A stretch of 64,000 nt of DNA from Pristiophorus japonicus (lineage: Eukaryota): NCBI RefSeq assembly GCF_044704955.1, contig NC_091984.1, positions 179,614,001-179,678,000 on the forward strand, in the 5' to 3' direction. The stretch's first letter is position 1. Every line of letters begins with the position of its first letter. Of this stretch, positions 1-25,850 are shown piece by piece. A program made the position numbers and the translations under genes. Below the pieces are notes generated by a model. That model saw nothing but the letters and a program-made list of their open reading frames with translations, was not told the DNA's origin and searched no databases.

Positions 1-1667
1 CTGGTCGGGGTGGATCATGTGGTCCAGCACGGCGCCAAGGTGAGCAGACATCGCCCTGTTGAAGATTTTGTAGTCCGTGCTGAGGAGGGAGACCGGGCGC
101 CAGTTCTTAAGGAGGCGGAGATCGCCCTTCTTAGGCAGCAGGATGATGACTGCCCTGCGCCAAGAGAGGGGCATCTCCCCGGTCGCCAGACTTTCCCCCA
201 GGACCCGCGCATAGTCGCCCCCCAGAACGTCCCAGAACGCCCTGTGGAACTCCACGGTCAGCAGGTCCAGCCCCAGGGCTTTTCCCCTCGAGAGCCGGTC
301 GAGGGCGCCGGTCAGCTCCGCCAGGCTTAGCGGAGCTTCCAGATTTTCAGCGCCCTCCCGGCTAACCTTCGGCAGGTCCTCCCACAAAACTCTACGTGCT
401 TCCTCGCTGGATGGCTCCGGAGAGAACAGAGCCCCGTAATATTCACGGGCCCTGTTGTTGACGCCCTCCGGATCCGAGACGAGAGAGCCGTCGTCGACCA
501 GCAGCGTCAAGAGCTGCTTACGGACACTCTGCCTTTTTCCAGCGAGTAGAAGAAGGGGGAGCCGCGGTCCACATCACGCAGGAACCAGATCTGCGACCTC
601 ACGAACGCGCCTCGGGACCCGACGAGCTGCAGGTCCTTCAGCGCGGCCTTCTTCACTTCGTACACCGTCCGCAGGGCCGGGTCCTCGACAACTTGATCGA
701 GACGGGACTCCAGGTCAAGCACCTCTTTTTCTAGGCGCCCGACCCTGGCCGCCCGCCTCTTGGTCGACCCCCTCGCGTACTCTTGACAGAAGACGCGTAC
801 GTGAGCCTTGCCCACGTCCCACCATAGCCTCAAGGAGGGGAAGCCCCCCTGCTTCCTTCTCCAGTGGGCCGAGAAACGACGGAACGAATCCTGGAACCGC
901 ACATCTTCCAGCAGCTGGTTGTTAAAATGCCAGTACACGGACCCCGTCCTCGCGCGGAGCAAAGCGAGCTCCGCCCACACCAGGTGGTGGTCCTAACATG
1001 GCACCGGCCACATGGAGGCCGCCGGGACGCAGGAAACGTATGCCCGAGACACATAAAGGCGGTCGATTCTGGACCATCCTACTCCAGGCCTCACCCAAGT
1101 AAAGGCGCTGGAGTCGGGGTGGAGATTTCGCCAGACGTCCACCAGGTCGAAGAACCCGACCAGGTCCCTCAACTTCTCCATCGCCGTCATGCTCTGCGGG
1201 GCACCGGAGCGGTCCCTTGCCTCGAGGGTGCAGTTAAAATCCCCCCCGAGGGCAATGCAGTCGCCGACATCGACGGAGCTAAGAAGAGCGGACACTTATT
1301 GGAAGAAGCGCGTTTGCTGCGGGCCGGGCTGAGGGGTGTACACGTTCACGAGATGGAGCGGCATGTCCCCCAGGTGAACCGTGATGTGCAGCAAGCGGCC
1401 TGGCATGGGCTCCTCGACCCCCAAGATCTCCAGCTGAAAATGCGGGACCAGCAAGATGGATACCCCACAAGAAGTGGTGGTGAGGTGGCTCATGCGGACC
1501 TCTCCTTGCCATTCCAGGAGCCACGTGGCTTCGTCTCCCGGAACGGTGTGGGTTTCTTGCAGGAAGCACACCGCATATTTCCCCTCCCGCAGGGATGAAA
1601 ATTTGTTAAATCTACGGTGTGCCTCTCTGCCGCCGTTGATGTTGAGGCTGGCTATGGTTATCTTCAT
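1..1667 (-). pseudogene. Copy A ORF2 5' part (APE endonuclease and linker), disrupted
   Basis: ORF fragments 1296-1688, 993-1295 and 507-980 carry LQETH, GGDFN and RIDRLY motifs, split by stops and frameshifts. Confidence 0.85.
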
Positions 1668-1679
1668 GACAAAAGCATA

Positions 1680-3639
1680 GTGCAACATCTACCTAACCTA
1701 TTGTGGGGGAGGGGAGTGGAGTCGTTTGTTGACCTCCACTCCTTCAGCGTCCCAGCGAGGAACCTTTTGAGACGGCGCAGCTCAAGGCCTTGCGCCTTTG
1801 ATAACGGCCCGCCCGCGGCCATGGTTTTAATGGCGGCGCGGACGGACGCGATGAGCAGCCCCGGCTCAGACCATTTTTCCCGGGCCAGATGGGCTCGGTT
1901 GCGGCAACCCTGGCTCTGGGCCAAAAAGTCCCGGAGTTCCTTTACAGGAATGAGGGGGGACTCAGCAGCGGGCACGAGGAGATCCACTGCCTCACTGGTG
2001 ATGGACTCAAAATCTTCTTCTGAGTCCCCCACCAAGTCCCCGTCCCCCTCCGGGAGGTCACCGCCAGCAGCCGGCCCGTCGACCGCACGAGGTATGACAA
2101 ACGGCCCGGCCGCTCCATCCAACCCTGGCTCTGTCCCGATCCCACCCCCAGGATCGTCAGCAGAGGAGTCCCCACTGGGCTCTTTTAAAAGTGGTGCTGG
2201 ATCACGAAGCGACAGCGGAAGGGGTTCCTCCTCTGCCCCAGGAACCGGGGAACAGAGAGTGACCTGGCCAAAGTAATTCTCCAGGTCCTCCAATACCACA
2301 GCTCCAAAGTAGGGGGCGAGGGTTGGTGGTCTTCCCCTTCCCCGTCGCCACCCCCGGCCCAGCGTGGACAGAATTGTTAAAATTGTTCATATTTTCCATT
2401 TCTTCCGGGCTGAGCGAATCCCGCGGGAAGTTGGTTAATAGCTGGGCGGGCTCAGGTTCAGAATTTTCATCCCCGCCCGCCTCAGTACCCGGGATGCTCG
2501 ACCTGATGGCTACGCATTCCTCCGCTGGCCCCACGCCCCCCACGACAGGCAGATCTTCCACGCCATCCCCGGGAGCCAGAGGCTGGGAAGCCTCGACTGT
2601 CTCACTCTCCCCGGGGACAGATTCCTCCTGCCTACGCCGCAGTTTGGGGGCGCTGGTGGGGGACGCGGGACACGCGGCGGGCATGTTATCGGCGTAAGTC
2701 GAGAGGACGACCTCCACGCCCGGCACCCCGCGCTCGCTGGTGATGGGGATGGGCTGAGCGTGGTAAACAAATTGTCTGGCGCACTGAGGGGACCCGCCTC
2801 GAGAGTTTCGCCTTCTTCCGCGCCTTCTTTCCGATAAGACACTCTCCCTCCCCCCCGCCGGAGGCCGTGAAAACAAAGGCCCCCGATGATGCCTGCACAC
2901 CTACGGCTCCCGGCACGCGGACGCAACTAGGGGGACGGGTGGCAGCGGCGCCAGCCTTGGCTGCCTTCAGTGATTTGGCGGCCTTGGAGGCGGGGCAGTT
3001 TTTACGAACATGCCCCACCTCCCTACAGGCATGGCACCGCACGCCGTCCCACGTCCAGAAGACGCAGTAGGCAGTCCCCTCGTGCACCACATTAAATGAT
3101 CCCTCCGTTGTCTCCTCCCACGCCAGCCAGGCAAAAAGTTGGCGGCGGAAGGAGAACACGTGGCGCAGGCTGCTCTCCCTGAGCCCGAGCGGTATGGGGT
3201 TGATCCCCGACCTTACCTCCACCAGTTGGTGTAGGTGAGGGAGGATGAGCTCAGCAGGAACAAAGGGCGGGACATTTGAAAGGATGACCCTCTGCGCGGT
3301 GGCCTCGAGAGGTTCCACCGGCAGGAACGTCCCGCCCACCGTGAGCCCCTTTTCAAGGGCCAGGGACACCACCCGCTCCGACCCCAGGAAGAATACAGCC
3401 TTCCCAGACATCTTGGAGGTTGCGACAATGGCCGAGGGGCCGACTACCCCAGCCATCACCCGCACGCACTCCTCGATGCTCATTGTGGGGTGAGTGTAGC
3501 TCTTGACCCCGTGTTTTTTTGTTATAAGTCTGAAAGGTGTCAGGGCAGCAGGAGGCACAGGAGGCGCCGTGGATGTGGACGCCGCCTGCGCATATGTCTT
3601 TGCTGGCTGTGCCACCGGCGTGGATGAGGTCGCCATCAT
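1680..3639 (-). pseudogene. Copy A ORF1 (zinc-knuckle nucleic-acid-binding protein), frameshifted
   Basis: ORF 2686-3639 contains VILSNVPPF and the CCHC knuckle. The acidic, Pro-rich C-terminal half continues in other frames. Confidence 0.85.
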
Positions 3640-4799
3640 GGGGTCCCTTTAAGGGCCACAGCCACCCAAAGTCACAGGCCTTAATGGTCTTAAATGGCCT
3701 CATTGGTGTTTGAACAGAGGGAGCTCTAAAAGAGGCACACCTCTCCCCTAGTTGACAATTGGGGAGGGGCCTTGCTCCCTCTGCTCAGTTGTCTTAATTG
3801 GTTTTTAATTAGGAGGAAAGGGGCTCTCAGAGAGAGAGGGGAAAGACAGAGAGAGAGAGAAAGTGAGTGGGGGTGGGACAGAGGGAAGCTGTGAGGGCAG
3901 GTCTCCCCTCACAGCGATGGGTGGGTGTTTTTCTTGGGGTGCACTCCCCAGAAGATGGAAAACAAACACAGTCTTTGTAGATGGTCTTCGGGTGGGGGGG
4001 AGAAGATGTCTTCACCTGGGACAGCTGGAGCCACCCAGGCACACACCCCCAACGATGTTAAATAGGTGATTAATAGTTCTTCAACCAGGTAGCTCCAGCT
4101 ATCCCAGGCTAGGCAATGGGGGAGGGGTGCTTCAGTCGTGTGTGGGGCTGAGCTGTAAGCAAGACCCCCACACACACTTCCACAAACACCCCGCCCCCCC
4201 CCCCGCGATGTTCTGGCCCTCTAGCAAGTCTTCTTTCCACCCCCCACCGATACAACAAAGTCTTTAGGGGAATGCACCAAAACACACCGACCTTTGCTTG
4301 ATGAAGTTTCTCCCTCCTTCCACACTGGATACTTGTTCTTTTTTCCCCTTCTCTCCAAATCTCTGCAGCAGTATTAAAGGTTGTTGAATTTTCCGCTCTC
4401 CTCCTCTCCCTCTGGATGGATTGGAATGTAGAAAGCCCCCTCCTCCTCTTCCTGGGCTGTTTCACAGGGCTCACAACAGGCTTTCCAGTCAGGAGCAATA
4501 GCAGGGAGTTCCTTCTCTCACAGCAGCACAGCTCCAACTGAATAGGCCACGCCTCCAAAGCTCCACAATTGGTCCACAGAACTCTTGGGAGGAAACGAAA
4601 ACATTAAATCGTGGCCCCCCGATCTGGGGGACGCACCAAACATTTACAAGGCTCTTTTTTTTGGGTTTTTTTGTGTTTTTTATTTAAGTTTTTTTTTGGG
4701 CACCAAAATCATATTTTTTCTCCAAGAGCCCCCTACAAAAGGGGAGGGGGACACTGAAAACACCGGCAATTAAAACAAATTAAACTTTAAAACATAAAA

Positions 4800-7700
4800 T
4801 CAAATTAAAATTTGGTTGCCGGGCGTGATGATGCACTCCAGTCCCTCCCGTGCCCACCTCTCGCGGAAGGCCACGAGCGTACCGGTGGACACCGCGTGCT
4901 CCATCTCCAAGGACACCCTGGCACGGATGTACACGCGGAAGTGAGGCAGGCAGTCAGGTTGAACGACCCTCTCGACCGCCCGCTGCCTGGACCGGCTGAT
5001 GGCACCATTGGCCGTGCCTAGGAGCAGTCCTACGAGGAGACCCTCGGACCTACCCGCTCCCCGCCGCACAGGGTGCCCAAAGATCAGGAGTGTGGGACTG
5101 AAGTGCAGCCAGAATTTCAGGAGCAGCCCCTTTAAATAATAAAACAGGGGCTGCAACCTAGTGCATTCGATAAAAACATGGAACACGGACTCTTCCAGAC
5201 CGCAGAAATTGCAGGCGGCGTGGGAGCCCATGAACCGGCTTAAAAATTTATTGCACGGCACTGCTCCATGCACCACCCTCCAGGCCAAGTCCCCGATAAA
5301 TACTGGGAGGACTCCCGCGTAGAGTGCCCTCCATCGGGGACACCCACCTCCTCCGGACGGCAAGATGGTACGCCATGGCGTGTCGGGACGGCAGGCGATG
5401 ATGGCAAAATTGAGGGTGTGCAGGAGCAGCCCGTACAGGAAACCCCTCCGCGCGGAACTGAAAGGCATGGAGGGGATTTCCCCGAGGCAGCTCAAGTTGT
5501 GAGGCGCCGGCTCCCGAGGGAGGTTCCGGGGTTTGGCGCCGATGATGAATTCCGTCCAGACGGGGGTCAGTTCGGACGGGATCTCCCCACATGCTTGAGC
5601 CTCCTCGATGCACCTAACGGAGTCAGGGCCCAGAGCTGTTTTTAGCGACTCGATGGCATCGGCCGCGCGGCGGACGTCGGCCGTATTTAGGCGCCGTGCC
5701 TGCGTGTCTGGCGCCATCCAGCCCACTCCTCTGCCATCGAGCAGGTCCCTGACACTAGTCACCTCACCAGCCACAGCCCTCTCGTCCGACTGCCAACTAA
5801 AACCTCGGTCATGGAGGTACGGATTCCCGAGCAGCGGCTCGTGCAGGACAGCCGCCACTCCAGCCGGTGGAGAGCTGCGTTTGATGGAGACTTTGTTTCA
5901 GACCCTGGTAAGTTCCTTGTAAAAGACAGGCAGCTCCTGGAAGGCGGTCCTGACGCCCCCCATGCTCACAAACAGGAGCTGCGTGTCGTAGTTGAGGTCA
6001 TGCTGCTGGCGGAAACAATACGGCGCCAGAGCACGCCACCTAGAAGGGGGTTCGACGTAAAGGTATCTCTGCAGGGTCTGAAGATGGAAAGTCGCGACTT
6101 GGGTGTTGACGCACACCAACGACTGACCGTCCTCCCCAAGCGGGAGCCTCAAGACCGCGGCAGAGACCCAGTGCTTCCTGTTGTTCCAGAAGAAGTCCAC
6201 CAGCTTCTTCTGTATCTTGGTGACAAACGCAGGGGGAGGGGTCAAAGTGACCAGCCGGTACCACAGCATGGCGGCCACCAGCTGGTTTATGACTAGCGCT
6301 CGACCCCTGTAGGACAGCACTCGGAGCAGTCCTGTCGAGCACCCTAGGCGAGCGGCGACCTTGGCCTCCAGCTCTTGCCAGTTTGCTGGCCAGGCTTCCT
6401 CGTTGGGGCTAAGGTCGACTCCCAGATAGAGGAGATGGGTCGTGCTCCAGGCAAAAGGCCTGAGCTCCTCCGGCTGGGAGTCCACCCACCACTGACCCAC
6501 CAGGAGTCCGGAACATTTTTTCCAGTTGATCCTGGTGGAGGATTCGGCCGAGTAAATCTCCTGGCACTCACGCATCCTCCGCAGGTCAGTGGGATCCTCT
6601 ACCGCGAGGAGCACGTCATCGGCGTAAGCCGAGAGGACGACCTCCACGCCCGGCCCTTGCAGAGCCAGTCCCATCAACCTCGTCCGCAGGAGGCGCAGGA
6701 AAGGCTCCACGCAGATGGCATATAACTGGCCGGATATGGGGCATCCCTGGTGCACCCCTCTCCGAAAGAGAAGGGGCGCCGTCAAGGACACGTTAACCTT
6801 TATCAGACACTCCGCGGCGGCGTACAAAAGTCGGATCCGGGCGACGAAATGCATCCCGAACCCGAAAGCGCGCAGAGTTCCAAACAGATAGTCGTGATCC
6901 ACCCTGTCGAACGCCTTCTCTTGGTCGAGAGATAGGAAGGCGACCGCCAGACCAGTCTCCTGGGAATGATGGATGAGGTCCCAGACCAGATGGATGTTAC
7001 CGTGGATTGTCCGGCCCGGGACCGTGTAGGACTGGTCGGGGTGGATCATGTGGTCCAGCACGGCGCCAAGGCGAGCAGACATCGCCCTGGCGAAGATTTT
7101 GTAGTCCGTGCTGAGGAGGGAGACCGGGCGCCAGTTCTTAAGGAGGCGGAGATCACCCTTCTTCGGCAGCAGGACGATGACTGCCCTGCGCCAAGAGAGG
7201 GGCATCTCCCCGGTCGCCAGACTTTCCCCCAGGACCCGTGCGTAGTCGCCCCCCAGGACGTCCCAGAATGCCCTGTGGAACTCCACGGTCAGCCCGTCCA
7301 GCCCCGGGGCTTTAACCCTCGAGAGCCGGTCGAGGGCGCCGGTCAGCTCCGCCAGGCTTAGCGGTGCTTCCAGATTTTCGGCGCCCTCCGGGCCAACCTT
7401 AGGCAGGTCCTCCCACAAAACTCTACGCGCTTCTTCGCTGGACGGCTCCGGACAGAACAGAGCCCCGTAATATTCACGAGCCCTGTTGTTGACGCCCTCC
7501 GGATCCGAGACGAGAGAGCCGTCGTCGGCCAGCAGCATCAAGAGCTGCTTACGGATACTCTGTCTTTTTTCCAGCGAGTAGAAGAAGGGGGAGCCGTGGT
7601 CCAGATCCCAAAGGAACCGGATCCACGACCTCACGAATGCGCCTCGGGACCCGACGAGCTGCAGGTCCTTCAGCGTGGCCTTCTTCGCTTCGTACACCAT

Positions 7701-8698
7701 CCGCAGGGCCGGGTCCTCGACGACTTGACCGAGACGGGACTCCAGGTCGAGCACCTCTTTTTCTAGGCGCCCGACCCTGGCCGCCCGCCTCTTGGTCGAC
7801 CCCCTCGCGTAATCTTGACAGAAGACACAGACGTGGGCCTTACCCACGTCCCACCATAGCCTCAAGGAGGGGAAGCTCCCCTACTTCCTTCTCCAGTCGG
7901 CCCAGAAACGACGGAACGAGCCCTGGAACCGCACGTCCTCCAGCAGCTGGTTGTTAAAATGTCAGTACGTGGACCCCCTCCTGCGCGGAGCGAAGTGAGC
8001 TCCGCCCACACCAGGTGGTGGTCCGAACACAGCGCCGGCCGCATGGAGGCCGCCGGGACGCAGGAAACGTACACCCAAGACACGTAAAGGCGGTCGACTC
8101 TGGACCATCCTACTCCAGGCCTCACCCAAGTAAAGGCGCTGGAGCCGGGATGGAGATTTCGCCAGACGTCCACCAAGTCGAAGGACCCGACCAGGTCCCT
8201 CAACTTCTCCATCGCTGTCATGCTCTGCGGGGCACCGGAGTGGTCCCTCGCCTCGAGGGTGCAGTTAAAATCCCCCCCGAGGACAATGCAGTCGCCGACG
8301 TCGACGGAGCCAATAAGAGCGGACACTTCTTCGAAGAAGCGTGTTTGCTGTGGTCCGGGCTGAGGGGCGTACACGTTCACGAGATGGAGCGGCACGTCCC
8401 CCAGGGGAACCGTGACATGCAGCAAGTGGCCTGGCACGGGCTCCTCGACCCCCGAGATCTCAGGCTGAAAATGCGGGGCCAACAAGATGGCCACCCCACA
8501 AGAAGTGGTAGTGAGGTGGCTCATGCGGACCTCTCCTTGCCATTCCAGGAGCCACGTGGCTTCATCTCCCGGAACGATGTGGGTTTCTTGCAGGAAGCAC
8601 ACCGCATATTTCCCCTCCCGCAGGAGCGAAAAATTGTTAAAACTAAGGTGTGCCTCTCTGCCGCCGTTGATGTTGAGGCTGGCTATGGTTATCTTCAT
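4800..8698 (-). pseudogene. Copy B ORF2 (endonuclease, reverse transcriptase, zinc finger), interrupted
   Basis: ORFs 7862-8842, 5898-7865 and 4800-5858 with KNWRPVSLL, LDQEKAFD, YADD and YLGV motifs. Confidence 0.9.
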
Positions 8699-8719
8699 GA
8701 CAAAAGCATGAAGATAACT

Positions 8720-10807
8720 TATTGTGGGGGTTGGAGTGGAGTCGTTTGTTGACCTCCACTCCTTCAGCAGCCCAGCGAGGAACCTTTTGAGCTGGCGCAG
8801 CTCAAGGCCTCGCGCCTTTGATAAGGGCCCGCCCGCGGCCATGGTTTTAGCGGCGGCGCGGACGGATGCGACAAGCAGCCCTGGCTCGGACCATCTTTCC
8901 AGGGCCAGATGGGCTCAGTTGCGGCGACCCTGGCTCTGGACCAAAAAGTCCCAGAGTTCCTTTGCAGGAATGCGGGGGGACTCAGCGGCGGGAATGAGGA
9001 GATCCACCACCTCACTGGCAATGGACTCGAGATCTTCTCCCTCATCCCCCACCGAGTCCCCGTCCCCCTCCGGGAGGTCGCCGCCAGCAGCCGGCCCGTC
9101 GACCGCACGAGGTACAGCAAACGGCCCGGCCGCTCCATCCAACCCTGGCTCCGCCCCGATCCCACCCCCAGGATCGTCGGCAGAGGAGTCCCCACTGGGC
9201 TCTTTTAAAAGCGGTGCTGGGTCAGGAAGCAACAGCGGAAGGGGTTCCTCCTCCACCCCAGGAGCCGGGGAACACGGAGAGATCTGGTCAAAGTAATGTT
9301 CCAGGTCCTCCAAGTACCCCAGCTCCAAAGTAGGGGGCGAGGGTTGTTGTTCTTCCCCCTCCCCGCCGCCACCCCCCGGCCCAGCGTGTACAGAATCTTT
9401 AAAATTGTTCATATTTTCCGTTTCTTCCGGGCCGAGCGACTCCCGGGGGAAGTTGGTTAATAGCTGGGCGGGCTCAGGTTCGGCCTTTTCGGCCCCGCCC
9501 GCCTCAGTCCCCGGGACGCTCGACCCGGCGGCAACGCATTCTTCCGCTGGCCCCGCGCCCCCCACGACAGGCAGATCTTCCACGCCATCCCCAGGAGGCA
9601 GAGGCTGGGCAGCCTCGACTGCCTCACCCTCCCCAGGGATAGATTCCTCCTGCCTACGGCGCAGCTGGTGGGGGACGCGGGTCATGCGGCGGGCACCGAT
9701 TCCTCCACGGAGGGATGTTGTTCCCCCTCCGCCTCATTGGAGTGGCGCCTCCTTTTGTTCCTGGGGGAGCACGGAGGCAGGGAGACCTCCGTGTCTGCCG
9801 AGGCCTCCCGCTCCACTCCCCCCTATTTCTTATCTTGCCCGCGCCCAAACCCCTTTGCGGTATTGGTCAAGGGCTCGGGCACGGGCTCAGGGCACCCCGC
9901 GCTCGCCGGTGACGGGGTTGGGCTGAGCGCGGTAAACAAATTGTCTGGCGCACTGAGGGGACCCGCCTCGAGATGTTTCGCCTTCTTCCGCGCCTTCCTT
10001 CCGATGAGACGCTCTCCCTCCCCCCCGCCAGAGGGCGTGAAAAAAAAGGCCCCCGACGATGCCCGCGCACCTATGGCTCCCGGCACGCGGACGCTACTAG
10101 GGGGAGTGGTGGCGGCGGCGCCAGCCTTGGCCGCCTTCGTTGGTTTGGCGGCCTTGGAGGCGGGGCAGTTCTTGCGAACATGCCCCACCTCCCTACAGGC
10201 ATGGCACCGCACGCCGTCCGACGTCCAGAAGACGCGGTAGGCAGTCCCCTCGTGCACCACATTAAAATTGCCCTCTGTCATCTCCTCCCGCGCCAGTCGG
10301 ACAAAAAGGTGGAAGCAGCAGGAGAACACATGGCGCAGGCTGTTCTCCCTGAGGCCGAGCGGTATGGGTTTGATCCCTGACCTCACCTCCCCCAGTTGGT
10401 GTAGGTGAGGGAGGAGGAGCTCAGCGGGAACAAAGGGCGGGACGTTTGAAACGCTGACACTCTGCGCGGTGGCCTCGAGTGGGTCCACTGGCAGGAACGT
10501 CCCGCCCACCGTGAGCCCCTTTTCAAGGGCCAGGGACACCGCCCGCTCCGACCCCAGGAAGAATACAGCTATCCCACACATCTTGGAGGCTGCGACAATG
10601 GCCGAGGGACCGACTACCCCAGCCATCGCCCGCATGCACTCCTCAATGCACATTGTGGGGTGAGTGTAGCACTTGACCCCGTGGTTTCTTTGTTATTAGT
10701 CTGAACGGTATCAGGGCAGCAGGAGGCGCAGGAGGCGCCGTGGATGCGGACGCCGCCTGCGCATATGTCTTTGCTGGCCCTGCCACCAGCGTGGATGGGG
10801 TCACCAT
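8720..10807 (-). pseudogene. Copy B ORF1, frameshifted
   Basis: ORFs 9823-10653 (CCHC knuckle) and 8915-9685 are homologous to copy A ORF1. Confidence 0.85.
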
Positions 10808-11755
10808 CACGGGGTCCCTTTAAGGGCCATACCCACCCCAAAGTCACAGGCCTTAATGGTCTTAAATGGCCTCGTTGGTGTTTGAACAGAGGGAGCTCTA
10901 AAAGAGGCACACCTCTCCCCTAGTTGACAATTGGGGAGGGGCCTTGCTCCCTCTGCTCAGTTGTCTTAATTGGTTTTTAATTAGGAGGAAAAGGGCTCTC
11001 AGAGAGAGAGGGGAGAGACAGAGAGAGAGAGAAAGAGAGTGGGGGTGGGAAAGAGGGAAGCTGTGAGGGCAGGTCTCCCCTCACAGCGATGGGTGGGTGT
11101 TTTTCTTGGGGTGCACTCCCCAGATGATGGCAAAACAAACACAGTCTTTGTAGATGGTCTTCGGGTGGGGGTAGAAGATGTCTTCACCTGGGACAGCTGG
11201 AGCCACCCAGGCACACACTCCCAACGATGTTAAATAGGTGATTAATAGTTCTTCAGCCAGGTAGCTCCAGCTATCCCAGGCTAGGCAATGGGGGAGGGGT
11301 GCTTCAGTGGTGTGTGGGGCCTAGCTGTAAGCAAGACCCCCACACACACTTCCACACATACACACACCCCCCGCGATGTTCCGGCCCTCGAGTTATCTTC
11401 TTTCCTCCCCCCACCAATAAAACAAAGTCTTTCGGGGAATGCACCAAAATACACCCACCTGTTGAAGATTGTAGAAATGGCTCTCCCTCCTTCCACACTG
11501 GATGGTGTTTTCTCAGGTTGTTGTTCTTTTCCCCCTCTCTCCAACTCTCTGTAGCAGTAATAAAGTTGATAAATTTTTCTGCTCTCCTCCTCTCCCTCTG
11601 GATGAATTGGAACTGTAGTAAGCCCCTTCCTCCTCTTCCTGGGCTGGTCTCAGGGTTCTCTCTGGGCCTTCCGGCAGGAGCAACAGCAGGGAGTTCCTTC
11701 TCTCACAGCAGCACAGCTCCAACTGAATAGGCCACGCCTCCAAAGCTCCACAATT

Positions 11756-14231: not shown

Positions 14232-14562
14232 AAATGAGCGCGCAGCTCAAATTGATGCAGCCAGATCCAGAGTCCACTACACCAGGACGAACCGTTACCC
14301 TGGACTGTACAATCCAGGGAGCCAGCCTCTCAGAAAGTTATGCTTAAACAGAGGTGTGGCAGTGCCCCGAGGTTTGTCCTGAAGGATACCGGTCAAAGAG
14401 TCACCGGTATCCCAAACAGATTTACAGGCCTGGCAGACGAAATTACCAACGTGGCATATTTCACCATCACTAACGTGGAATCGGAGGAGGACGCTGTTTA
14501 TTACTGTGCAACATCTCACAACAGCTCCCAATTCGGTAGCGGGTCCAGGCTGAATGTTCTGA
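14232..14562 (+). pseudogene. Germline-joined Ig V-J exon (Ig light-chain/VpreB-like), frameshifted pseudogene
   Basis: Acceptor ttcacag and donor A|GTAAGT, both phase 1. Reads EMSAQLKLMQPDPESTTPGRTVTLDCTIQGASLSESY, then a frameshift (conserved Trp missing, TAA at 14345), then LKQRCGSAPRFVL...GIPNRFTG...ITNVESEEDAVYYC...FGSGSRLNVL (J motif FGxG). No RSS seen. Confidence 0.88.
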
Positions 14563-15894
14563 GTAAGTAACATATTTATGCTTCATAAAATAAATGGCTT
14601 GTAAAATGGCGAATTTAAATGCGGAGTTTAAATTGCTCTATTTGCCCTTTTATTCAACTAAGCTGTTCGTTCCGAGACCGGACCACACCCGGAATGGCCT
14701 GATTCACCTGCTGTCAAACATGAATCAAACCATACTCGGGCATTTCTGTTTACCTTTTCGCTTGAATCTCTGCCAAATCGAAATGTTATGTAAAAAAAAT
14801 AATTCCACTTTCAAATATACTTTCGGTGTAACGGGTTCCTCTTTGCAAGCTCTTCCCTGTGACAGAATCAGGGAGTGACAGCGACGTGTAAGTGGAGGAC
14901 GCAATACGAAGCAATTGCTCTTAAAATTGCTCCTTTTCCAAAACTCTTTCTTGATGCTCCCCGACCTTCAGCGTCCATAGGTAGAAACGTACTCTTATGA
15001 GCAGAATTGTAATTTACAGCTTGTAATGGATGGGATGTAGTGTGTATGGGGCTAACAATCTATCCTTTTATCATCAACAAATAGCATGGTAATCCCACTG
15101 TTCATTCGGATCTATCCCCAAGGCAGAAAAGGACTATAGGGCTCAGGCTAAAACTATTTATTATGAATTGATTTTAAGATATATAGGTTATGAAAAATGA
15201 AAAATTAATCTGATGATAATTATCAATATAGTACTTAAAGTTGTTCTTATACTTTCAACCATTTCTAATACTAAAGTCTCTTTTTAGCATTCTAACAACT
15301 GTTTCCCAGAAATCAATAACGTGGGCAAGTCTAGCTCCAAGGAGTTCCATTTCACCATGAGGTGGGCTGGATGTTTGGAAATGGCCTCTGGTTTTTCTAA
15401 TTGCACTGGGTCCAGGCAATTTCTCATAACTCCGTTCAAAACAGTCTTTCCGTCGTATTGCAGTACTTTTTCAATTATCCCGGACCTTTTCTCAACAGAC
15501 GGTTTAATCAATATCATTTATTTCTATCACGGGCTGAATGAAAATTGCAAAGCAATTATTGTGGCTGTCTGACCAGTTGTTTCATTACATCAGAATGTTG
15601 CCAACCCTCATTGGAATTTCACATCTGGATAGGCCATTATTTTTGTGAAATAATACCGTCAACCATCCGCCCCACGTCAGTCAATAGCCCACAATTTCTG
15701 TGGCAATGGGGCTTGAATTTTCGAGCAGTTTGTCTGATCTCCGCCTTGATCTTGGTGGAAGGTCAAAGGAAACCACATAGAAACGGGTAAACGTCTCCCA
15801 TATTTGTGTCGATATTCCATCACTGTTACAGTGGGAAATCGGAGAATCGGGGAATCGGGGAAATGCTAGGTGAATACGGTCTCCAGACCGACAT

Positions 15895-16680: not shown

Positions 16681-17781
16681 TTCATTTTTGCAATACCTTT
16701 TGACGCTCAAGCGAAAGAGCAAAGGAATGCCAAACGGAAGCAGCAACATACGCTGTTTTGAAACTAAGAGGCCTGGCCTAGCTACAATTTAAATAAAAAG
16801 TTAATGCAGACATTTTATAATTTGAAACAGGATTAACCTGTTTCTGTCACAGTTGTTATCAGGCAAAGCGTGCAGACCTATTATTAAAGCAAAGTAAATC
16901 ATGCTCCGATATAGTCAGTCAAAGCGCCGGGAAAGGTCCTAACCGTAACTCTTGCCCTTTCTTCCTAAATGGTAAATAATGTCCTATCTTTCCACCTGCA
17001 CAGTAGCTTCCCAGACATATACCGCTGCAGGCAATTTTGTTGTGTATCCATGGAAGTCACTCTTCGCTCATAAACAGAATCACTACTGAAAACATCGTCC
17101 CCGGCTTTGAGTTTTCTCAACGCCTCTACAACGTTTTTTTTTAATACGGAACATTAACCCTATTCGTTAAATGTTGGCGTCCCCGACCAATCAAATGCGC
17201 CTTTCTATTGCTTGCACACGGGTGACCGTCGTCGTAATTCCATCGTAACCATAATTCCGCCTCTGCAGCAATGCAGGCTGTGTCACAGCGGGGAAGATTT
17301 GAAATTTCATTCATGTTTTAATATTCCTGCACAGGCTTTTAAAAAAATCTGTACATGAGGATGGGGTAAAGCCCATTGTTGGATTCACGGCGGGGGTTGA
17401 ATTTCCGCGGGAGTTTTTGCGGTTTCCGCGGCACTTTGGCCGGACGAACGGGGAGAACCCTGCGAAAACTCACCCCTGCACACCAATTAGCAAGATATAT
17501 CCACATTCAGTAGTGTTTAGTATTTACAACCGTTGAACTGCGAAGATAATTCTCCCAAATCTCCCGCTGTAATTTCGGCTTAAATTACAAGGGGAGATTT
17601 TGGTAACCTCCGGGACAGAAATTGACAATAGTGATGTGGTTCGAATGGATACAGTGACCCATGAAGCTTGCTTTGGAGTTTTCTACGTTACCTGGCACAG
17701 TTGAACATTTGTGATTTACTGAGTTAAAGAGCTAGGCCCTAACATTACGCAATTTCGGCGGAGGTGTTAAACCTCCGGAGA

Positions 17782-18279
17782 TGTATTGTATATAGGGTTA
17801 ATTATGATATTTCGACATTTACAGTGTGTTTCTGCTCCATGCCTTGTGGAATGTTGTTGATGCAGAGAGAGAGAGAGAGACTGACCTTGAGGCACACACC
17901 AGCTTGTTTATGGAACGGTCGGCGCCTCGAGATCTCATGCTTTGTGGAAGAGCAGCTGGGGCCTTATAGATTAGGAGTTGGCCATAAGCCATATGCATCC
18001 ATGTTTGTTCAATAGTATAAAGGAACGGATTGTCCAGTAGCTCTTTGAACTTCATCTTGGACCGTGATTCGCGAGCGGTGCCGGGACCCCCAAGGCTCCT
18101 AACCAGCCGTCGTTGCAGAGTTCCCGACGGGCAGAAGGCCGTGAGCTTTGTTGCATCTTATCATACTTCTCTTTTCTTCATAAACTGTATTATTATTGTT
18201 TCTTTTCTCTCAGTGAACGGTATTTTATCTTTACTTCATTTGTCTTGTCTCTTATTTAACATTCATCCAGATCCCGAAC
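17782..18279 (+). repeat. ERV 5' LTR (3' end deleted)
   Basis: Matches 25309-25822. TATAAA at 18016. Lacks the last ~28 bp of the 3' LTR. Confidence 0.9.
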
Positions 18280-20052
18280 AGGATCTGGTAAAATGTTTAA
18301 GAGAAAAGACAAGAAGCAGTCTCCTCCTGCGGGATAGAATACCAGGGTGGAGCACGAGGGATGAGGGTTTTGGCTCTCTTGCCAATGTGCTAGCCTGGTT
18401 TGGACCCCTGCTACATTGGGATATGCAGTTATTGGAACAGAGCAAAGATAGAACCGTACCCCACGTGGTACTGTCTCTCCTGGAGGAAGCGGGAGAAAAG
18501 TAGTCACCCACAAATGGATGGATTTTGTTAACAGCATTAAGGGTGATGTGTAAACAACTTAAGGAAAGTGAAGCAGAAATCCTACAGTTAAAAACAGCTG
18601 TTAAGGTTTTGGAAAGTCAACACTCGACCCTGACTGAAGCGGTCCGCACTGCACAAGAACGGGCGGACAAGGCAATGAACAATCAGAAACTTTAATATGC
18701 TGTCTGGCGACAGTACAACATTTTTTTAAAGCCAGACGACAGAAATTCCAGTTGGATTTGAAATATATCTTTTGTACTACACTGATTTGCTGCTGCATGT
18801 GGCATGCATTTGCTCAATCAGAACCCAGTGAGTGTTTAAAAGCCAATGCAAAATCATGTGTGGAATGTATACAAGCTGGAAAAAATTGTAGATGGTGCAC
18901 CAAAAATATCTGGTGCTCGTCTGACTCAGAATATGAGTGGACAGATGGAGAGGGGAGGGGGATTGGGAGGAAACTAAAGACCCTCCCCCATACGCTCCAA
19001 GCACGAAAGCTAGAACCCTTATGACAAGTAAGACGAAACAGCAAGATGGGGAACAGCCGTAACCACTAGAGGGGTGTGTGACTTCACCATTAGTGAGTTA
19101 CAAGAAATAGAGTCTCGATTTCGCCAAAAACCCGGGGAATCATTGTCAAAATGGCTAACCCAGATTTGGGACCAGGGAGCATCAGGCGTAATACTTAACC
19201 CCGAAGAGTTAACAAAAATGAGGTCTATGACTACGGACCACCATATCACAGCAGTGCTACAGAATGTTCAGGGCACAAGTTCGCTATGGGACATGGTTAC
19301 TACAGGGGTCCGGCAAAAATATCCCTCTGCATTTGATTGGGAAGGTGAGGTAAAACCTTGGAATACTATGGCGGAGGGTGCGATACAGTTGCGCAACATG
19401 GCAACACAGGGAGGATTATATCACCAACCATATGGGGGGGCCAGATCAGGAGCTTTTTACGGCAGGAATGCAGAGCAGGCTGATGAAGAGTGGCCCTCCT
19501 ATGATGAGGGGTGCGCTACTCGCATTATTGGGACCAGCCCAAGGGCAGCGAGTGGGGCACGCTTGCCTATTGTTAGGACAGTTAGAGGATGTAGAAGATA
19601 GTGTGCAAGAGTCGAGAACAGTTAATGTAGAGGGGGATCGGGACCAGCAACAAGGTTCGACCTCTGAGAAAGGTACAGGGTCAGGAACGACAAAAAAAAG
19701 AATTACGCGGAGGGACATGTTCACGGCTTTACTGAAGGCAGGGGTCCCCAAGGACAAAATTGATGGAATCCCAACAGCAGCGATGTATTCTATGTGGAAG
19801 CAACACTGCGTCCCAGGAACAGGGAAGAGTGAAAGGAGGGAGGTAAGGGAGACTAAGTCGGATAGCGATAAATCTGTGGATGCGGAGAAACTACCTCCCA
19901 CTAGCCTATACCCCAACGTAGAAGAGCTGTGGGAGGCTAGTAATCCCCTCAACTACGGGTGTCGCCGGGATTCGGGAGTACTCCCCGTTAGACCCACATC
20001 AACCCAAGCTCCCAGGGACCTGAGGCCACACATTCCGATTACAATACATTGA
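18280..20052 (+). pseudogene. gag: ERV gag (disrupted), running into the pro N-terminus; carries an ITGB1-derived insert
   Basis: Coiled-coil segment RADKAN-EQSETLICCLATVQ, NIW motif, and DFTISELQEIESRFRQKPGE...IWDQG resemble MuERV-L/Fv1 gag. Confidence 0.8.
18752..18907 (+). pseudogene. ITGB1: Captured processed fragment of integrin beta-1 (signal peptide plus start of PSI domain)
   Basis: [52 protein letters not shown] aligns with the vertebrate integrin beta-1 N-terminus (human, from memory: [51 protein letters not shown]). Confidence 0.88.
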
Positions 20053-23000
20053 TGGGGGGGAACATACAAAAAAATGTTGCTTTACTAGACACAGGGGCAG
20101 AAGTTACTAATATCCATGGAAATCCTAGGAAACACACAGGACCCGTATGATAATTAACGGGTTCAGAGGGGCAGAAACGCCCGCTGTCCGAACAACTATC
20201 AGAATGACGTTGGGAAATGGGCCTCCGCGCTGGGTAACGGTCTTAATATCAGCAATAAAGGAACATATTATTGGGTTGGACCTTTTAAAGGGAACCACAC
20301 ACAACACCTCGTTCCAGCGATTCTCATTCGGGATACGGGCGATCACTGTGATTGCAGGGGAAGCAAAGTGGGAACCAGTGGTAATACCACGGCCATCATG
20401 TATAGTGACTGTGAAACAGTACCGAATACCTGGGGGACACAAAGAAATAGGGGAAACCATACAAGGGCTCTTGGAGGCGGGTATCATTAGACATGCGGTG
20501 TCCCCCTACAATAGCCCTGTTTGGCCTGTGCAGAAACCCGACAAAAGTTGGAGGATGACTGTGGACTACCGACAACTGAACAAATTTGGCCCTCCCCTGG
20601 CAACTGCTGTCCCAGATGTAGTAACTATAACAGAGCGGCTGTCTGAAGAAGGTGCGGAGTGGTATGCGGTAATCGACCTGGCCAATGCCTTTTTCTCCAT
20701 TGCAATAGCGGAACAATCCCAGGACCAGTTTGCATTCACTTGGGAAGGGAGGCAATACACATTTAAATGCCTACCTCAAGGTTACCTAGATAGCCCTACC
20801 CTATGCCACGGATTGGTGGCCCAGGACCTGGACATATGCACGTTTATCTCCTAATGTCTCACTGGCACACTACATCGATGATGTACTAATAAGGGGTCCC
20901 ACCGAGGCAGTGGTGTCTGAAGGCCTAGCTACTTTAGTCCAACACATGCGAGACAGAGGCTTGGAGATAAATCCGAAGAAGGTGCAGGGCCCTAGCCAGA
21001 CTGTCCAGTTTCTGGGGATCTAATGGTCTCGGGGTGAGCACATGAAGAATAAAATTCAAGAAATGGCCACCCCCACGAATAAAACAGTGACACCAAGTTT
21101 TGTGGGACTACTGGATTACTGGAGGAGACACATACCTCACCTCACGATGTTAGAAACATAGAAACATAGAAAATAGGTGCAGAAGTAGGCCATTCGGCCC
21201 TTCGAGCCAGCACCGCCATTCAATGAGTTCATGGCTGAACATGCAACTTCAGTACCCTATTCCTGCCTTTTCGCCATACCCCTTGATCCCCCTAGTAGTA
21301 AGGACTACATCTAACTCCTTCTTGAATATATTTAGTGAATTGGCCTCAACAACTTTCTGTTGTGGAGAATTCCACAGGTTCACCACTCTCTGGGTGAAGA
21401 AGTTTCTCCTCATCTCGGTCCTAAATGGCTTACCCCTTATCCTTCAGGGTATTAAAACCGCTGTATGCCGTAACACGAAAAAAGGGCCACTTCAAGTGGG
21501 GAAAGGAATAGCACGTGGCTGTTGATGCAGCCAAAGAAGCCGTAGCTCAAGCTTTACCCCTAGCCCCGCGAGTGCCTGAGCAGCCTTTTGAGCTACAGGT
21601 ATCCGTTACCAATGATACTGCAGGATGGAGTTTGTGGCAGGTTCAACATGGCACTCGTATACCATTAGGGTTCTGGTCTAGAAAATTGACAGATTCTGCT
21701 ACTCGTTACACTCCATTTGAGAAACAATTATTAGCATGTTATTGGGCCCTAACAGAAACAGAAGGACAGACAGGGGACGACAAAGTCAGTTTAAGACCAG
21801 ACCTACCCATATTATCCTGGGTTCTCTCAGAAAATGAGACACACAAGGTCGGGCGAGTGCAGCAAAGCTCCATAGTGCGCTGGAAATGGTACATCGCAGA
21901 CAGAGCATGTAAAGGAAAAGAAGGAATCACCCGACTACATGAGCATGTCGCTGAATACCCACAAACAGCTGAGAGTGAACTTACGCAGTCGTCTGACAGT
22001 TTAACCAAAGAGTCACCGATCTCCTGGGGCGTGTCTTTTGAACAGTTAACACCTGAAGAACGTAGCCATGCCTGGTTTACAAATGGCTCAGCGGTCTGGC
22101 AAAATGGCCTCGGTGATGGCGAGCCACTGCCTTCAATCCAAAAACCCAGACAATTGTGCATGATGAGGGCGTGGGAGGCTCCAGCCAGCTAGCAGAACTA
22201 GCAACTCTAGTCCTTGCATTAGAAGAGGAACAGCAAAAAGTACACATATATACTGACTCACGGGCAGTAGCCAATGGCATGGCGAGCTGGATGCGAAATT
22301 GGCATGAACATAACTGGCAAATAACTGGGAAAGACTTGTGGGGAAAGCACCTTTTGGAACAATTATGGTCCAAAGCCCAGAAGATGACAATAACTGTATA
22401 TCATGTGGACGCTCACATGAAAAACACTTCAAAGACCTCTGAACATAATAACACCATTGATAATATAGCACGGGCTGTCAAAGAGGCGGAAGAGGAAGAA
22501 TATGGCATAGGCAAGTGGGCCCACCATAAATCTGGACATTTGGGCATTCAGGATACGATACAATGGGCAAGAAATAGGGGGTTACATTTGACTATGGACG
22601 GTGTTAAACAGATCATAAACTCCTGTGAAATTTGTCAAAAGGTGAAGCATTTTCCCCTACAACGACAACCATATTAAGAGAGGAACTCAACCAGCACAAA
22701 TATGGCAAGTTGATTATGTAGGACCTTTACCATTGCAACAACGGTTCCAATATTTGCTCACTGCTGTTGATACCTATTCTGGACTTTTGATAGCTTATCC
22801 AGTTACTAAAGCGAATCAACAAAGTACGATTAAAGGACTGGAGAATTTAATCACATACTACGGTGAGCCAGCAGAAGTACAGTCCGATAATGGGTCACAC
22901 TTCACAGGTCAAACAGTGCAACTGTGGGCGGTAGACAACGAGATCTATTGGATGTTTCACATACCTTACTATCTGCAAGCTGCAGGGTTAATAGAACGCA

Positions 23001-23338
23001 TGAATGGACTACTTAAGCAACAGATTAAAATATTAACTCCCACTAACACATTGCAAGGGTGGTTACCACAAGCTGTACGCAATCTGAATCACCGACCATT
23101 GCAGGGGGGGGGGGGAACTCCCATAAGCCACATGTTAGGCAAAGTTAGTGTCCCTACTGAGTTAGTGACTCAGGACACAGTTTGTGAAGGAGGAAAAGTG
23201 TGGGTGCAGTACCCCCAGAAACCCTTACAAGCAGGGGAAATCTTAGCGAAAGGAGAAGGAAACACTTATTGGGTGCTCCTGACTGGTCAAGATATTCCTC
23301 TCTGTGTTGACAAGGGTAAATTGACTAAATGGGGCTGA
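20053..23338 (+). pseudogene. pol: ERV pro-pol (protease, RT, tether, RNase H, integrase), disrupted
   Basis: LLDTG at 20082-20096; YNSPVWPV, WRMTVDYRQLN, DLANAFF, LPQG; YIDD at 20871; FEKQLLACYWAL; WFTNGS and SQLAEL; HHKSGHLG...CEIC; VDTYSG, SDNGSHF, IERMNG. Confidence 0.92.
21151..21444 (-). mobile_element. CR1 3' end inserted into ERV pol
   Basis: (AGAAACAT)n tail. Nearly identical to 32442-32755. The pol reading resumes after it (LKPLYAVT). Confidence 0.88.
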
Positions 23339-23380
23339 ATTAAGATACTTATGCTTCCTCCCACAGGGATTCTGCCCAAA

Positions 23381-25284
23381 ATGGTGACTTACCAACTCGT
23401 GCTGGCCAGTCTCTGTGTCTCGTTATCTGTGACTGTGCTGCTTCCATCCTCAAACACAGCATGGAATGGCTGTATAGGATGGTGGTTAGCTAACACTGAT
23501 CGTACGCAAGACAATTTTACCTGTCCTTCCGGACAAGCCTGCATTATAGGACACTGGAGCATCACTTGTGATGCATGCGGGTACTGGGGAGGCCCAGGAC
23601 AGGTGCTATTAACAGTAAGCACGGGGGCCAGCAACACGTTATCAATCAAGTGGCAAAAAGATATGACAATGATATGCAATGTGCACTCTAATGTGTCGTT
23701 ATTGCACAACGTCACATGGTTAAGGAGTTGGGCCCGCAACATTACGTCAAGCAATGACACTATGTCAGACGAAATTAAGTTAAATGCGTCTCTATGGTAT
23801 AGATGTACAAATGCCTCCGTAATCACTGGTAGGGGTATTATGGGCCACTTGTGGTCAATGCATGTAATTAAGCATTCCAAGAGCCCCGTGGATCATTTGT
23901 AACGACTACACTCTACATTTACACCTGTGCTTACATCCACACCCATATTAAATCTCACACTACAAGTCGATTATGCGGACAAGCCGTCTGACACTTGTAA
24001 TATAACAACAATTAAAGCAAATCTGAAAACGTTAGTGAGACAAAGGCGTGATATATTAGCCACAATATTAGGAGGTGTAGGAACAGGAATAGGAGCATTA
24101 AACTCTATGGATATCGAGATCTTACAAAACAAAATACAAAAGGTAGGCAGACTCACTGGAGATGCAATTCAATTGCGAAATGCATGGAACAGAGGTCTCA
24201 CAGAACAGATGTTTCTAGTTGGCTGTCGGACGTAATGCGATGGGAACACATAGATAAAACTATTCGAGATAGGGAGTGTCACCGGGCGACAACAAATATT
24301 AGGTCATCACACACAATGCATGTTTGAAGAAGTAACCCGGCAATTATTAAGGGCCGAGTTAGAACGTATTGCCATGTCAGGGCATGCAGATAGTTGGAGC
24401 AAAATATTCCACTTCGGCAACAGAAATCTAGGGGTAAAACCTGATATGCAACATACACATTGTGATGACCAGGGGTGTAACTTCACCATGAGAATAGTCA
24501 ATATCACAAAAAACAACATTTGGTGCCAGTTTATAGTGCTTCCCCATCTGTATGGCCAAAATCTATGGGTACCCGAGTTCAAGGGTGGATGGATTGTTGC
24601 TAGCAATAGAACTCACCAAGCTCAAGATTGTCAAATATGGCCTTTCGGTATGGTGTGTCCTTTGCACACACCTGTGTTTGAACCATGCTCTCTACAGCAT
24701 ACAGCAGGAACATGTTTTTGGAGCACTTGTACCATACAATGATACAATATTAAATGAAATCGGACAGAATCATGTTTGTATTACTAGTGTCTATCCCATT
24801 TATCTTGACGGCATCCGTAAAGATCCTCCTCTAAATGCTTGCTTTAAAGATGTGTATACCATATATGACCTTCATTCTAAAATGCACCTTCCTAGGCATT
24901 ACTAACCTTCCTCCCACTATAGACCTAACTCGTTCAGCTCAATTTCTAAAAGATAATCGAAAGGTCACTGACGAATTGAGCAAACGAGGGCATACTCTTC
25001 ATACTCTGCAAGTTGCTATGAGTTACAGTGAAGGTGCCTTGGCCAGAGTTGCGACAACGGTCACTGACCTTACGGTACACCATTGGTGGGACATCTTTTA
25101 CGGATGGTCACCAAAAGCATCCGCCACTTTGAAGCTGTTAATACATCCTATCGTTGTTTTACTCATTGCGTTATTACTGATATTACTGCTTGGATGTATT
25201 CTTTGGTGTAGATTGCGGGCGTTGCTTGCGCATACTCAATGTGTAACTGATGCATTACGCCTTCAACTTGATTATATTACTTAG
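23381..25284 (+). pseudogene. env: ERV env (signal peptide, furin site, fusion peptide, TM anchor), disrupted
   Basis: Splice-acceptor-like cttcctcccacag just before the ATG. Signal MVTYQLVLASLCVSLSV; RQRR|DILATILGGVGTGIGALN at 24038; anchor HPIVVLLIALLLILLLGCILW. Confidence 0.85.
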
Positions 25285-25308
25285 AATGTCTAAATATCAA
25301 GGGTGGAT

Positions 25309-25850
25309 TGTATTGTACAGAGTTAATCACATAGGGTTAATTATGATATTTCGACATTTACAGTGTGTTTCTGCTCCATGCCTCATGGAATGTTGTTGAT
25401 GCAGAGAGAGAGAGAGAGAGAGACCGACCTTGAGGCACACACCAGTTTGTTTATGGAACGGTCTGCGCCTCAACATCTCATGCTTTGTGGAAGAGCAGCT
25501 GGGGCCTTACAGATTAGGAGTTGGCCATAAGCCACATGCACCCATGTTTGTTCAATAGTATAAAGGAACGGACTGTCCAGTAGCTCTTTGAACTTCACCT
25601 TGGACCGTGATTCGCGAGCGGTGCCGGGATCCCCAAGGCTCCTGACCAGCCGTCGTTGTGGAGTTCCCGATGGGCAGAAGGCCGTGAGCTTTGTTGCATC
25701 TTATCTTACTTCTTTTTTCTTCATAAACTGTATTATTATTGTTTCTTTTCTCTCAGTAAATGGTATTTTATCTTTACTTCATTTGTCTTGTCTCTTATTT
25801 AACATTCATCCAGATCCCGAACCTGGAACTATTATTATCGATCCAATACA
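25309..25850 (+). repeat. ERV 3' LTR (complete)
   Basis: TGTATTG...CAATACA inverted ends and an internal (GA)n. Follows the purine-rich tract. Confidence 0.92.

Follow-up and report, generated by a model that had tools for sequence, protein, structure and literature searches.

Acutely transforming retroviruses carry gag-onc fusions, in which host coding sequence is read in frame with gag. That LTR elements can take up spliced host RNA is already known, as set out in the accessible parts of two reports (PMC5131818, PMC4299795). One of them names RSV src and v-kit as captures and describes crocodilian endogenous retroviruses (ERVs) that took up KIT-ligand and nectin3 as near-whole ORFs, between pol and env or instead of env, in 9 and 6 copies and under purifying selection (Chong et al. 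2014, PMC4299795). The other describes LTR-mediated retroposition, where part of a spliced host mRNA lies in the internal ORF of an element and the chimera is recopied; its published signature is internal ORF replacement with microsimilarity at the switch points, which fall anywhere in the mRNA (median 6 bp, at 25 of 29 junctions), and FAM8A1 in HERV-K is cited there (Tan et al. 2016, PMC5131818). In an amphibian ERV, an intronless OGFr gene is present in 2331 of 4552 copies, carriers and non-carriers occurring together and the carriers having mostly kept env; the accessible part of that preprint describes neither an in-frame gag fusion nor exon-exact ends (bioRxiv 10.1101/2021.11.23.469661). 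Pseudogenes derived from circRNAs consist of a few 5′ exons without poly(A), lie near LTRs and are defined by a back-splice joint (Dong et al. 2016, PMC4897178).

Here we describe an ERV of Pristiophorus japonicus in which a fragment of the host gene for integrin beta-1 (ITGB1) sits inside gag. With LTR-mediated retroposition it shares an intronless host sequence that replaced part of an internal ORF, two LTRs, the absence of LINE hallmarks and retroposition of the chimera in further rounds; it differs in that the joints lie on exon borders, the 3′ one without microhomology, that only 69 nt were replaced and that the gag frame was kept (PMC5131818). The crocodilian captures likewise concern an ERV outside classes I and II and are present in several copies, whereas here the cargo is a gag-internal fragment of 52 codons, the copies are far more numerous and no clear selection is seen (PMC4299795). 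High copy number is not new, because the OGFr capture is already abundant in the part of the preprint cited above. The back-splice joint that defines circRNA-derived pseudogenes is absent from the ITGB1 insert. Compared with gag-onc viruses, the cargo lacks a signalling part, being a signal peptide and half a PSI domain; downstream of the insert gag resumes, and the donor gene yielded no provirus remnant. Searches of the openly accessible literature returned no paper describing this ITGB1 capture. What is unusual is that the gag swap is small and in frame, that both ends are exact to the exon, and that donor, parent and chimera have survived side by side.

The window, that is, the whole stretch of 64,000 nucleotides that was analysed (starting at G000:C8:179614001 in the 5.9-Gb genome), contains a broken, class III-like provirus at 17782-25850 (Table 1). 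Its two LTRs are 94.9% identical, and the 5′ LTR lacks the U5 end together with most of the primer-binding site. Two variants of this site occur in the family directly after the 5′ LTR (L099-L138), and both presumably resemble tRNA-Ser 3′ ends. Stops and frameshifts disrupt the 5′ part of gag in the window copy, and the column that terminates gag (window 19954) reads TAG in 50 of 55 copies; the protease frame runs on past it. The env-like region is probably env, judging from its position and its hydrophobic C-terminus; no Pfam env match was found in it. Compared with the PDB, the RT of the window copy ranks foamy-virus Pol first (82 bits) and MLV RT at 72 bits, and a 5-bp target duplication (at most one mismatch) flanks 24 of 25 testable full-length copies. 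The class III-like assignment derives from this PDB ranking and these duplications, and we take ERV-L/ERV-S to be the label of the family. Duplications of 5 bp are typical of ERV3/ERV4 (Table 1 of PMC4299795), which have no gag zinc finger and either a dUTPase in pol (ERV3, sometimes lost) or none (ERV4); the ORFs of the broken window copy gave no zinc-knuckle or dUTPase Pfam match, and ERV3 and ERV4 are not separable thereby.

Table 1. Parts of the provirus, in window coordinates.
Feature	Coordinates	Strand	Remarks
5′ LTR	17782..18279	+	starts TG; preceded by GGAGA (17777-17781)
gag 5′ part, viral	18293..18751	+	5′ junction reached at ...CAG; also in insert-less copies
Captured ITGB1 first coding exon, 70 nt, signal peptide	18752..18821	+	initiator is TTG here
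Captured ITGB1 second coding exon, 86 nt, N-terminal half of PSI domain	18822..18907	+	3′ end is exactly the host splice donor
gag 3′ part, viral	18908..19956	+	IW.SSDSEYEW, proline-rich stretch, capsid-like region
pro-pol, broken	19957..23338	+	RT with YIDD, RNase H, integrase (Pfam matches)
Host repeat (common), inserted later into pol	21153..21449		mostly specific to the window copy
env-like region, broken	23339..25284	+	kept in the window copy; deleted in most carriers
3′ LTR	25309..25850	+	ends CA; followed by GGAGG, a 4/5 match to the 5′ flank

Elsewhere in the window, an Ig V-set ORF (14256-14570, + strand, Pfam E 4.4e-7) lies 3.2 kb upstream of the provirus and continues directly into a J-like FGSGS motif and then a GTAAGT donor; it looks like a germline-joined VJ light-chain gene. 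A GC-rich (~60%) tandem duplication occupies 1-4000 and 7032-11134, with a period of ~7.0-7.2 kb and units 88-98% alike.

The ORF at 18638-19024 is open through the block and reads as quoted in the initial annotation, in frame within gag. The block matched integrin beta-1 in the PDB with E 6e-11, beta-2 and beta-8 reaching 3.6e-4 or worse; Pfam PSI_integrin gave E 7e-5, under the curated cut-off, and the best protein matches of the insert were integrin beta-1 of sharks, rays and chimaera. Integrin-beta genes of the genome were located by family searches; among them, the canonical ITGB1 on C5, with exons that align over the whole of P0001, is the donor. The host-derived block, 18752-18907, corresponds exactly to its first two coding exons (70+86 nt), here called A (G000:C5 250040852-250040921, minus strand, ttTCAG/ATG...TCAG/GT, the slash marking a border) and B (G000:C5 250035363-250035448, minus strand, AG/ATCC...AAAAAT/GTAAGT), each flanked in the host by AG before and GT after. 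The insert begins with the first base of exon A, at the ITGB1 initiator as annotated, and ends with the last base of exon B, so that the exon boundary which had only been placed nearby proved exact. The intron of 5,403 nt that lies between these exons in the host gene is absent from the insert, confirming the spliced ITGB1 source that had been proposed. The host origin of the annotated interval (18719..18930) therefore stands, with narrower limits: 18719-18751 and 18908-18930 are viral, both being present in insert-less copies, and no 5′ UTR, once suspected at 18719-18751, was captured.

The window insert is 93.5% identical to host exons A and B, and the mean over 69 full-length inserts is 94.5%; for exon A alone, identity is 90.8% in the window copy and 98.6-98.7% in copies L002 and L011. 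The initiator ATG is kept in 65 of 76 copies with the insert (carriers), the TTG being a change private to the window copy. No other parts of ITGB1 were found in the 42 provirus stretches tested. Exons A and B are joined across 5,403 nt in contigs of three public runs from related organisms, contigs so swamped by intron repeats that expression and exon 1 are unreadable from them; the large DNA-like run X20 showed no A/B joint, a weak negative. A diverged ITGB1 paralog lies head to head with ITGB1, ~227 kb away (G000:C5 250.27-250.32 Mb; L039, L033), and its exons match P0002 at 100% in several blocks. This paralog is excluded as the donor because its exon A is only 72-75% identical to the captured one. 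Its exon B is ~1 base from that of ITGB1, its exon A being far more diverged, which suggests gene conversion or strong constraint. A candidate ITGB1 exon 1 is provided by a CpG island ~51 kb upstream of exon A (L142 7960-8330, G000:C5 ~250.092 Mb, minus strand), with donors AAG/GTAAGC and GT/GTGAGT.

What did the block replace? In 15 of 15 fetched loci of the insert-less type (native copies), the same flanks enclose a native segment, mostly of 69 nt, which in copy L078 reads IDRSKVRALVAGPTWDPARWDGD; the annotated replacement of the VRAL...WDP..W.G segment is thereby borne out. Five of 118 loci were dropped (2 without the ERV, 3 with truncated inserts), and the 113 aligned comprise 76 carriers and 37 native copies, some odd native variants having been added by hand. 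The insert measures exactly 156 nt in 69 of the 76 carriers and the native segment 69 nt in 34 of the 37 native copies. A clean insertion without loss was considered and rejected, the empty-site pattern having 0 matches; the event was a replacement. The WDP..W.G motif occurs in 18 of 148 distant gag matches listed by HMMER, many of which do not span the region; given its presence in such distant relatives, carriers have lost a conserved gag element. Among the matches listed, no distant gag relative had both gag and integrin parts, and word-indexed protein searches returned integrins only or no match. The native 69-nt segment (e.g. in L078) starts with AT and ends with AC in the manner of a minor-class intron, probably by chance; we take it to be without a U12 donor consensus.

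A DNA search yielded 290 candidates; all 40 that were scored matched, and all 30 that were fetched lay inside this ERV. A junction pattern matched 97 times with the carrier-type base and 149 times with a different, native-type base. True carriers made up 20 of 20 carrier-type picks, one further carrier-type match being native, and the share of junction-matching copies with the insert may be put roughly at 35-40%. A pattern with a non-A base after the 5′ joint had 113 matches, mostly to an unrelated repeat, and this count was discarded. Immediately ahead of the 5′ joint, ~20 nt of the viral sequence recur in an unrelated abundant repeat (L049-L063).

Two silent differences from host ITGB1 are found in 69 of 69 full-length inserts, and therefore the capture happened once. 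The chimera is dispersed to many scattered sites beside its unmodified sister form. Flanks differ between copies, which have individual 5-bp target duplications, so that the spread occurred by retroviral integration, and the anticipated presence of the insert at several independent sites is upheld by the 24 of 25 testable copies. Frequent insert variants form nested yet mosaic haplotypes, in keeping with serial divergence of carriers. On flank trees (FastTree; star-like and weakly supported, some long rows coming from inserted repeats) carriers and native copies intermingle, albeit not to the extent expected by chance: 16 and 22 changes are counted, and shuffling gave at least 26 and 25, respectively. 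The window copy has an upstream variant in common with native copies L079, L095 and L138, which suggests recombination near the insert. The LTRs have diverged to a similar degree in both forms, the medians being 5.2% (15 carriers) and 4.9% (13 native copies; p 0.15). The same gag or pol deletions are common to several carriers, and therefore at least those copies moved in trans. LINE-like repeats are abundant and have inserted in several copies, once inside the insert itself.

Which RNA was captured, and how? The native joints read TTACAG/ATAGAT ... GGAGAC/ATCTGG and those of the chimera TTACAG/ATGGAT ... AAAAAT/ATCTGG, the host having TTTCAG/ATGGAT and AAAAAT/GTAAGT, with exon 4 beginning GCA. 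The inspection of junction microhomology proposed at the outset gave a divided answer: at the 5′ joint, 23 of 34 native copies have CAGAT (5 nt) in common with the intron-1 acceptor; the overlap at the 3′ joint is 0 nt with pre-mRNA or mRNA, and 2 nt if the template is taken to be a back-spliced circle. On a linear mRNA, both joints would fall on exon borders with a rough probability of 2e-4. That the ends are exact to the exon, and that the 3′ one lacks microhomology, points to a splice-bounded RNA as template. We favour, at a probability of roughly 0.58, a single gain by two RT switches onto a co-packaged splice-bounded ITGB1 RNA, followed by passenger-like, helped spread. The ITGB1 RNA would have been packaged with viral RNA, and RT would have entered it at the 3′ end of exon B without homology; that end would most simply be a free RNA end, either of a 5′-exon splicing intermediate or of a transcript cut there. 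RT would then have left at the start of exon A, returning to viral RNA through the CAG/AT microhomology, and the hybrid probably spread largely as a passenger, the native sister form supplying help. With the conserved motif lost, Gag is likely impaired and helper proteins in trans are likely; one env deletion seen in 20 of 40 long carriers and 0 of 20 native copies was likewise counted for trans-mobilisation. RT template switching, as first suggested, is thus the likeliest route, though the 0 nt at the 3′ joint contrasts with the published median of 6 bp and counts against it (PMC5131818). The literature search found no paper showing capture of a splicing intermediate, and the template is itself hypothetical here.

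Three side observations concern the same borders. In native copies as in carriers, the viral sequence at the 5′ joint has an 11-nt identity with the host where intron 2 ends and exon B begins (L041 950-958), at the acceptor of exon B and not of exon A. An intermediate of gag with exon B only was sought by pattern, and the 7 matches were the host intron and 6 unrelated sequences. L116 is an exon-B-only chimera in appearance only, a LINE-like repeat having inserted there.

A circular RNA of exons A and B, entered and left by RT at the back-splice joint after exactly one turn, would explain the absence of any sequence outside these exons, and it would supply AT as a 2-nt microhomology, which 34 of 34 native copies offer at their 3′ joint and 24 of 34 at their 5′ joint. 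In the mouse, flanking LTRs are over-represented around circRNA-derived pseudogenes, not all of which retain the back-splice joint (accessible part of PMC4897178), and circular ITGB1 RNAs, not necessarily of this exon pair, are reported in mammals. Against it, a pattern search of the genome found no copy joined by back-splicing (two matches with 2 mismatches lacked the exon pair), the longest insert among the carriers has 158 nt and so none is multi-turn, both switches would hit the joint of a 156-nt circle by chance at ~4e-4, and no back-splice joint is among the contig joints listed for the public runs of relatives; we consider this origin unlikely. Ordinary switching on mature mRNA, with exon-exact ends arising by chance and filtered for frame, is the simplest published mechanism (PMC5131818), and the candidate exon-1 donor, on which any 5′ microhomology with mature mRNA depends, would give 4 nt (AG/AT); at the 3′ joint, however, exon 4 starts GCA and leaves 0 nt of homology, and an exact landing on the exon end has a chance of ~0.6%, which makes this route quite unlikely.

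If the spliceosome had made both joints, by trans-splicing or from proviruses flanking exons A and B, the exon-exact ends would be explained directly, and the 5′ joint does read CAG/GT in four native copies, the 3′ joint AG/ in three. Yet native AT...AC is the commonest state (27 and 34 of 37) despite hand-picked GT/AG variants, copies with GT or AG form no common group but are dispersed over the trees, the 3′ joint lacks a preceding pyrimidine tract, an in-frame donor of better appearance lies 15 nt downstream and is unused, and ~310 kb around ITGB1 hold no family copy (3.6 kb near C5:250.30 Mb and one N gap excepted). This mechanism is distinctly improbable, readthrough from a somatic or since-lost provirus in ITGB1 being conceivable nonetheless. 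A T-type match 0.7 Mb from ITGB1 turned out to be a native copy. Lastly, a LINE-mediated retrocopy or a DNA-repair insertion in one provirus, multiplied by segmental duplication, could draw on the LINE-like repeats that have entered several family copies, but the insert has neither poly(A) nor a target duplication of its own and 69 nt were lost. As an account of the spread it is refuted by the different flanks and separate 5-bp duplications of the copies, and as a whole it is extremely improbable; a first event at the DNA level would be compatible with retroviral spread and is conceivable.

Is the captured piece used? Because its 156 nt keep the frame and the protease frame continues past the gag TAG, Gag-Pol could still be translated, and Pol would then likely be made through the insert. 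Signs of selection are sparse. Over the 69 full-length inserts the selection ratio is 0.71; variants present in at least 4 copies comprise 5 synonymous and 15 nonsynonymous changes, losses of PSI cysteine and tryptophan among them, and a stop codon occurs in 12 of 69 inserts, no stop being common to 7 or more carriers. No selection signal was found in gag of carriers or native copies, and shared capsid changes are 1 synonymous to 7 nonsynonymous. In pol, frequent shared changes are 8 synonymous to 6 nonsynonymous (p 0.007) and carrier-enriched ones 4:1 (p 0.0125), several thresholds having been tried, another of which gave 3:5 (p 0.40). This synonymous lean hints that carriers relied in cis on the pol they encode, which would speak against their having been passengers only. 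A secreted or glyco-gag-like product led by the signal peptide, as had been envisaged, is unsupported: the internal ATG, with C at -3, stands within gag at 459 nt from its start, and a purine-rich sequence without an acceptor tract for splicing precedes it. The gag-integrin chimera may or may not have been functional.

Among copies reaching the 3′ LTR (11 did not), 23 of 35 carriers have lost env, as have 2 of 14 native copies; these losses are not independent because 20 of 40 carriers have one deletion in common. A further reading, which we regard as unlikely, is that a splicing intermediate was captured and that the stolen signal peptide became an ER anchor for Gag, turning the virus into an env-less intracellular retrotransposon. 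There are precedents in mouse IAP, which gained an ER signal, lost env and became intracellular (PMC4643047), and in the SRP-dependent Gag of Ty1 (PMC3945221), as given in the accessible parts of these reports. The kept frame, the lack of any stop common to at least 7 carriers, the env loss and the synonymous lean in pol are consistent with an ER anchor, a correlation only; frequent signal-peptide changes are more hydrophobic in 3 of 3 cases, as are 18 of 39 rare ones, which is not significant.

As a fossil of host-gene capture the family is unusually complete: one genome preserves the ITGB1 donor, the virus as it was before the capture and numerous copies descended from the chimera, so both joints can be read to the base. 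A piece bounded by splice sites makes it testable by survey which RNAs retroviruses capture: mature mRNA, intermediates or circles. The family further indicates that an ERV lineage can spread despite the loss of a gag motif conserved in distant relatives, and it connects the loss of env with a signal peptide taken from the host; were the ER-anchor reading true, a host exon would have been repurposed as a viral assembly signal.
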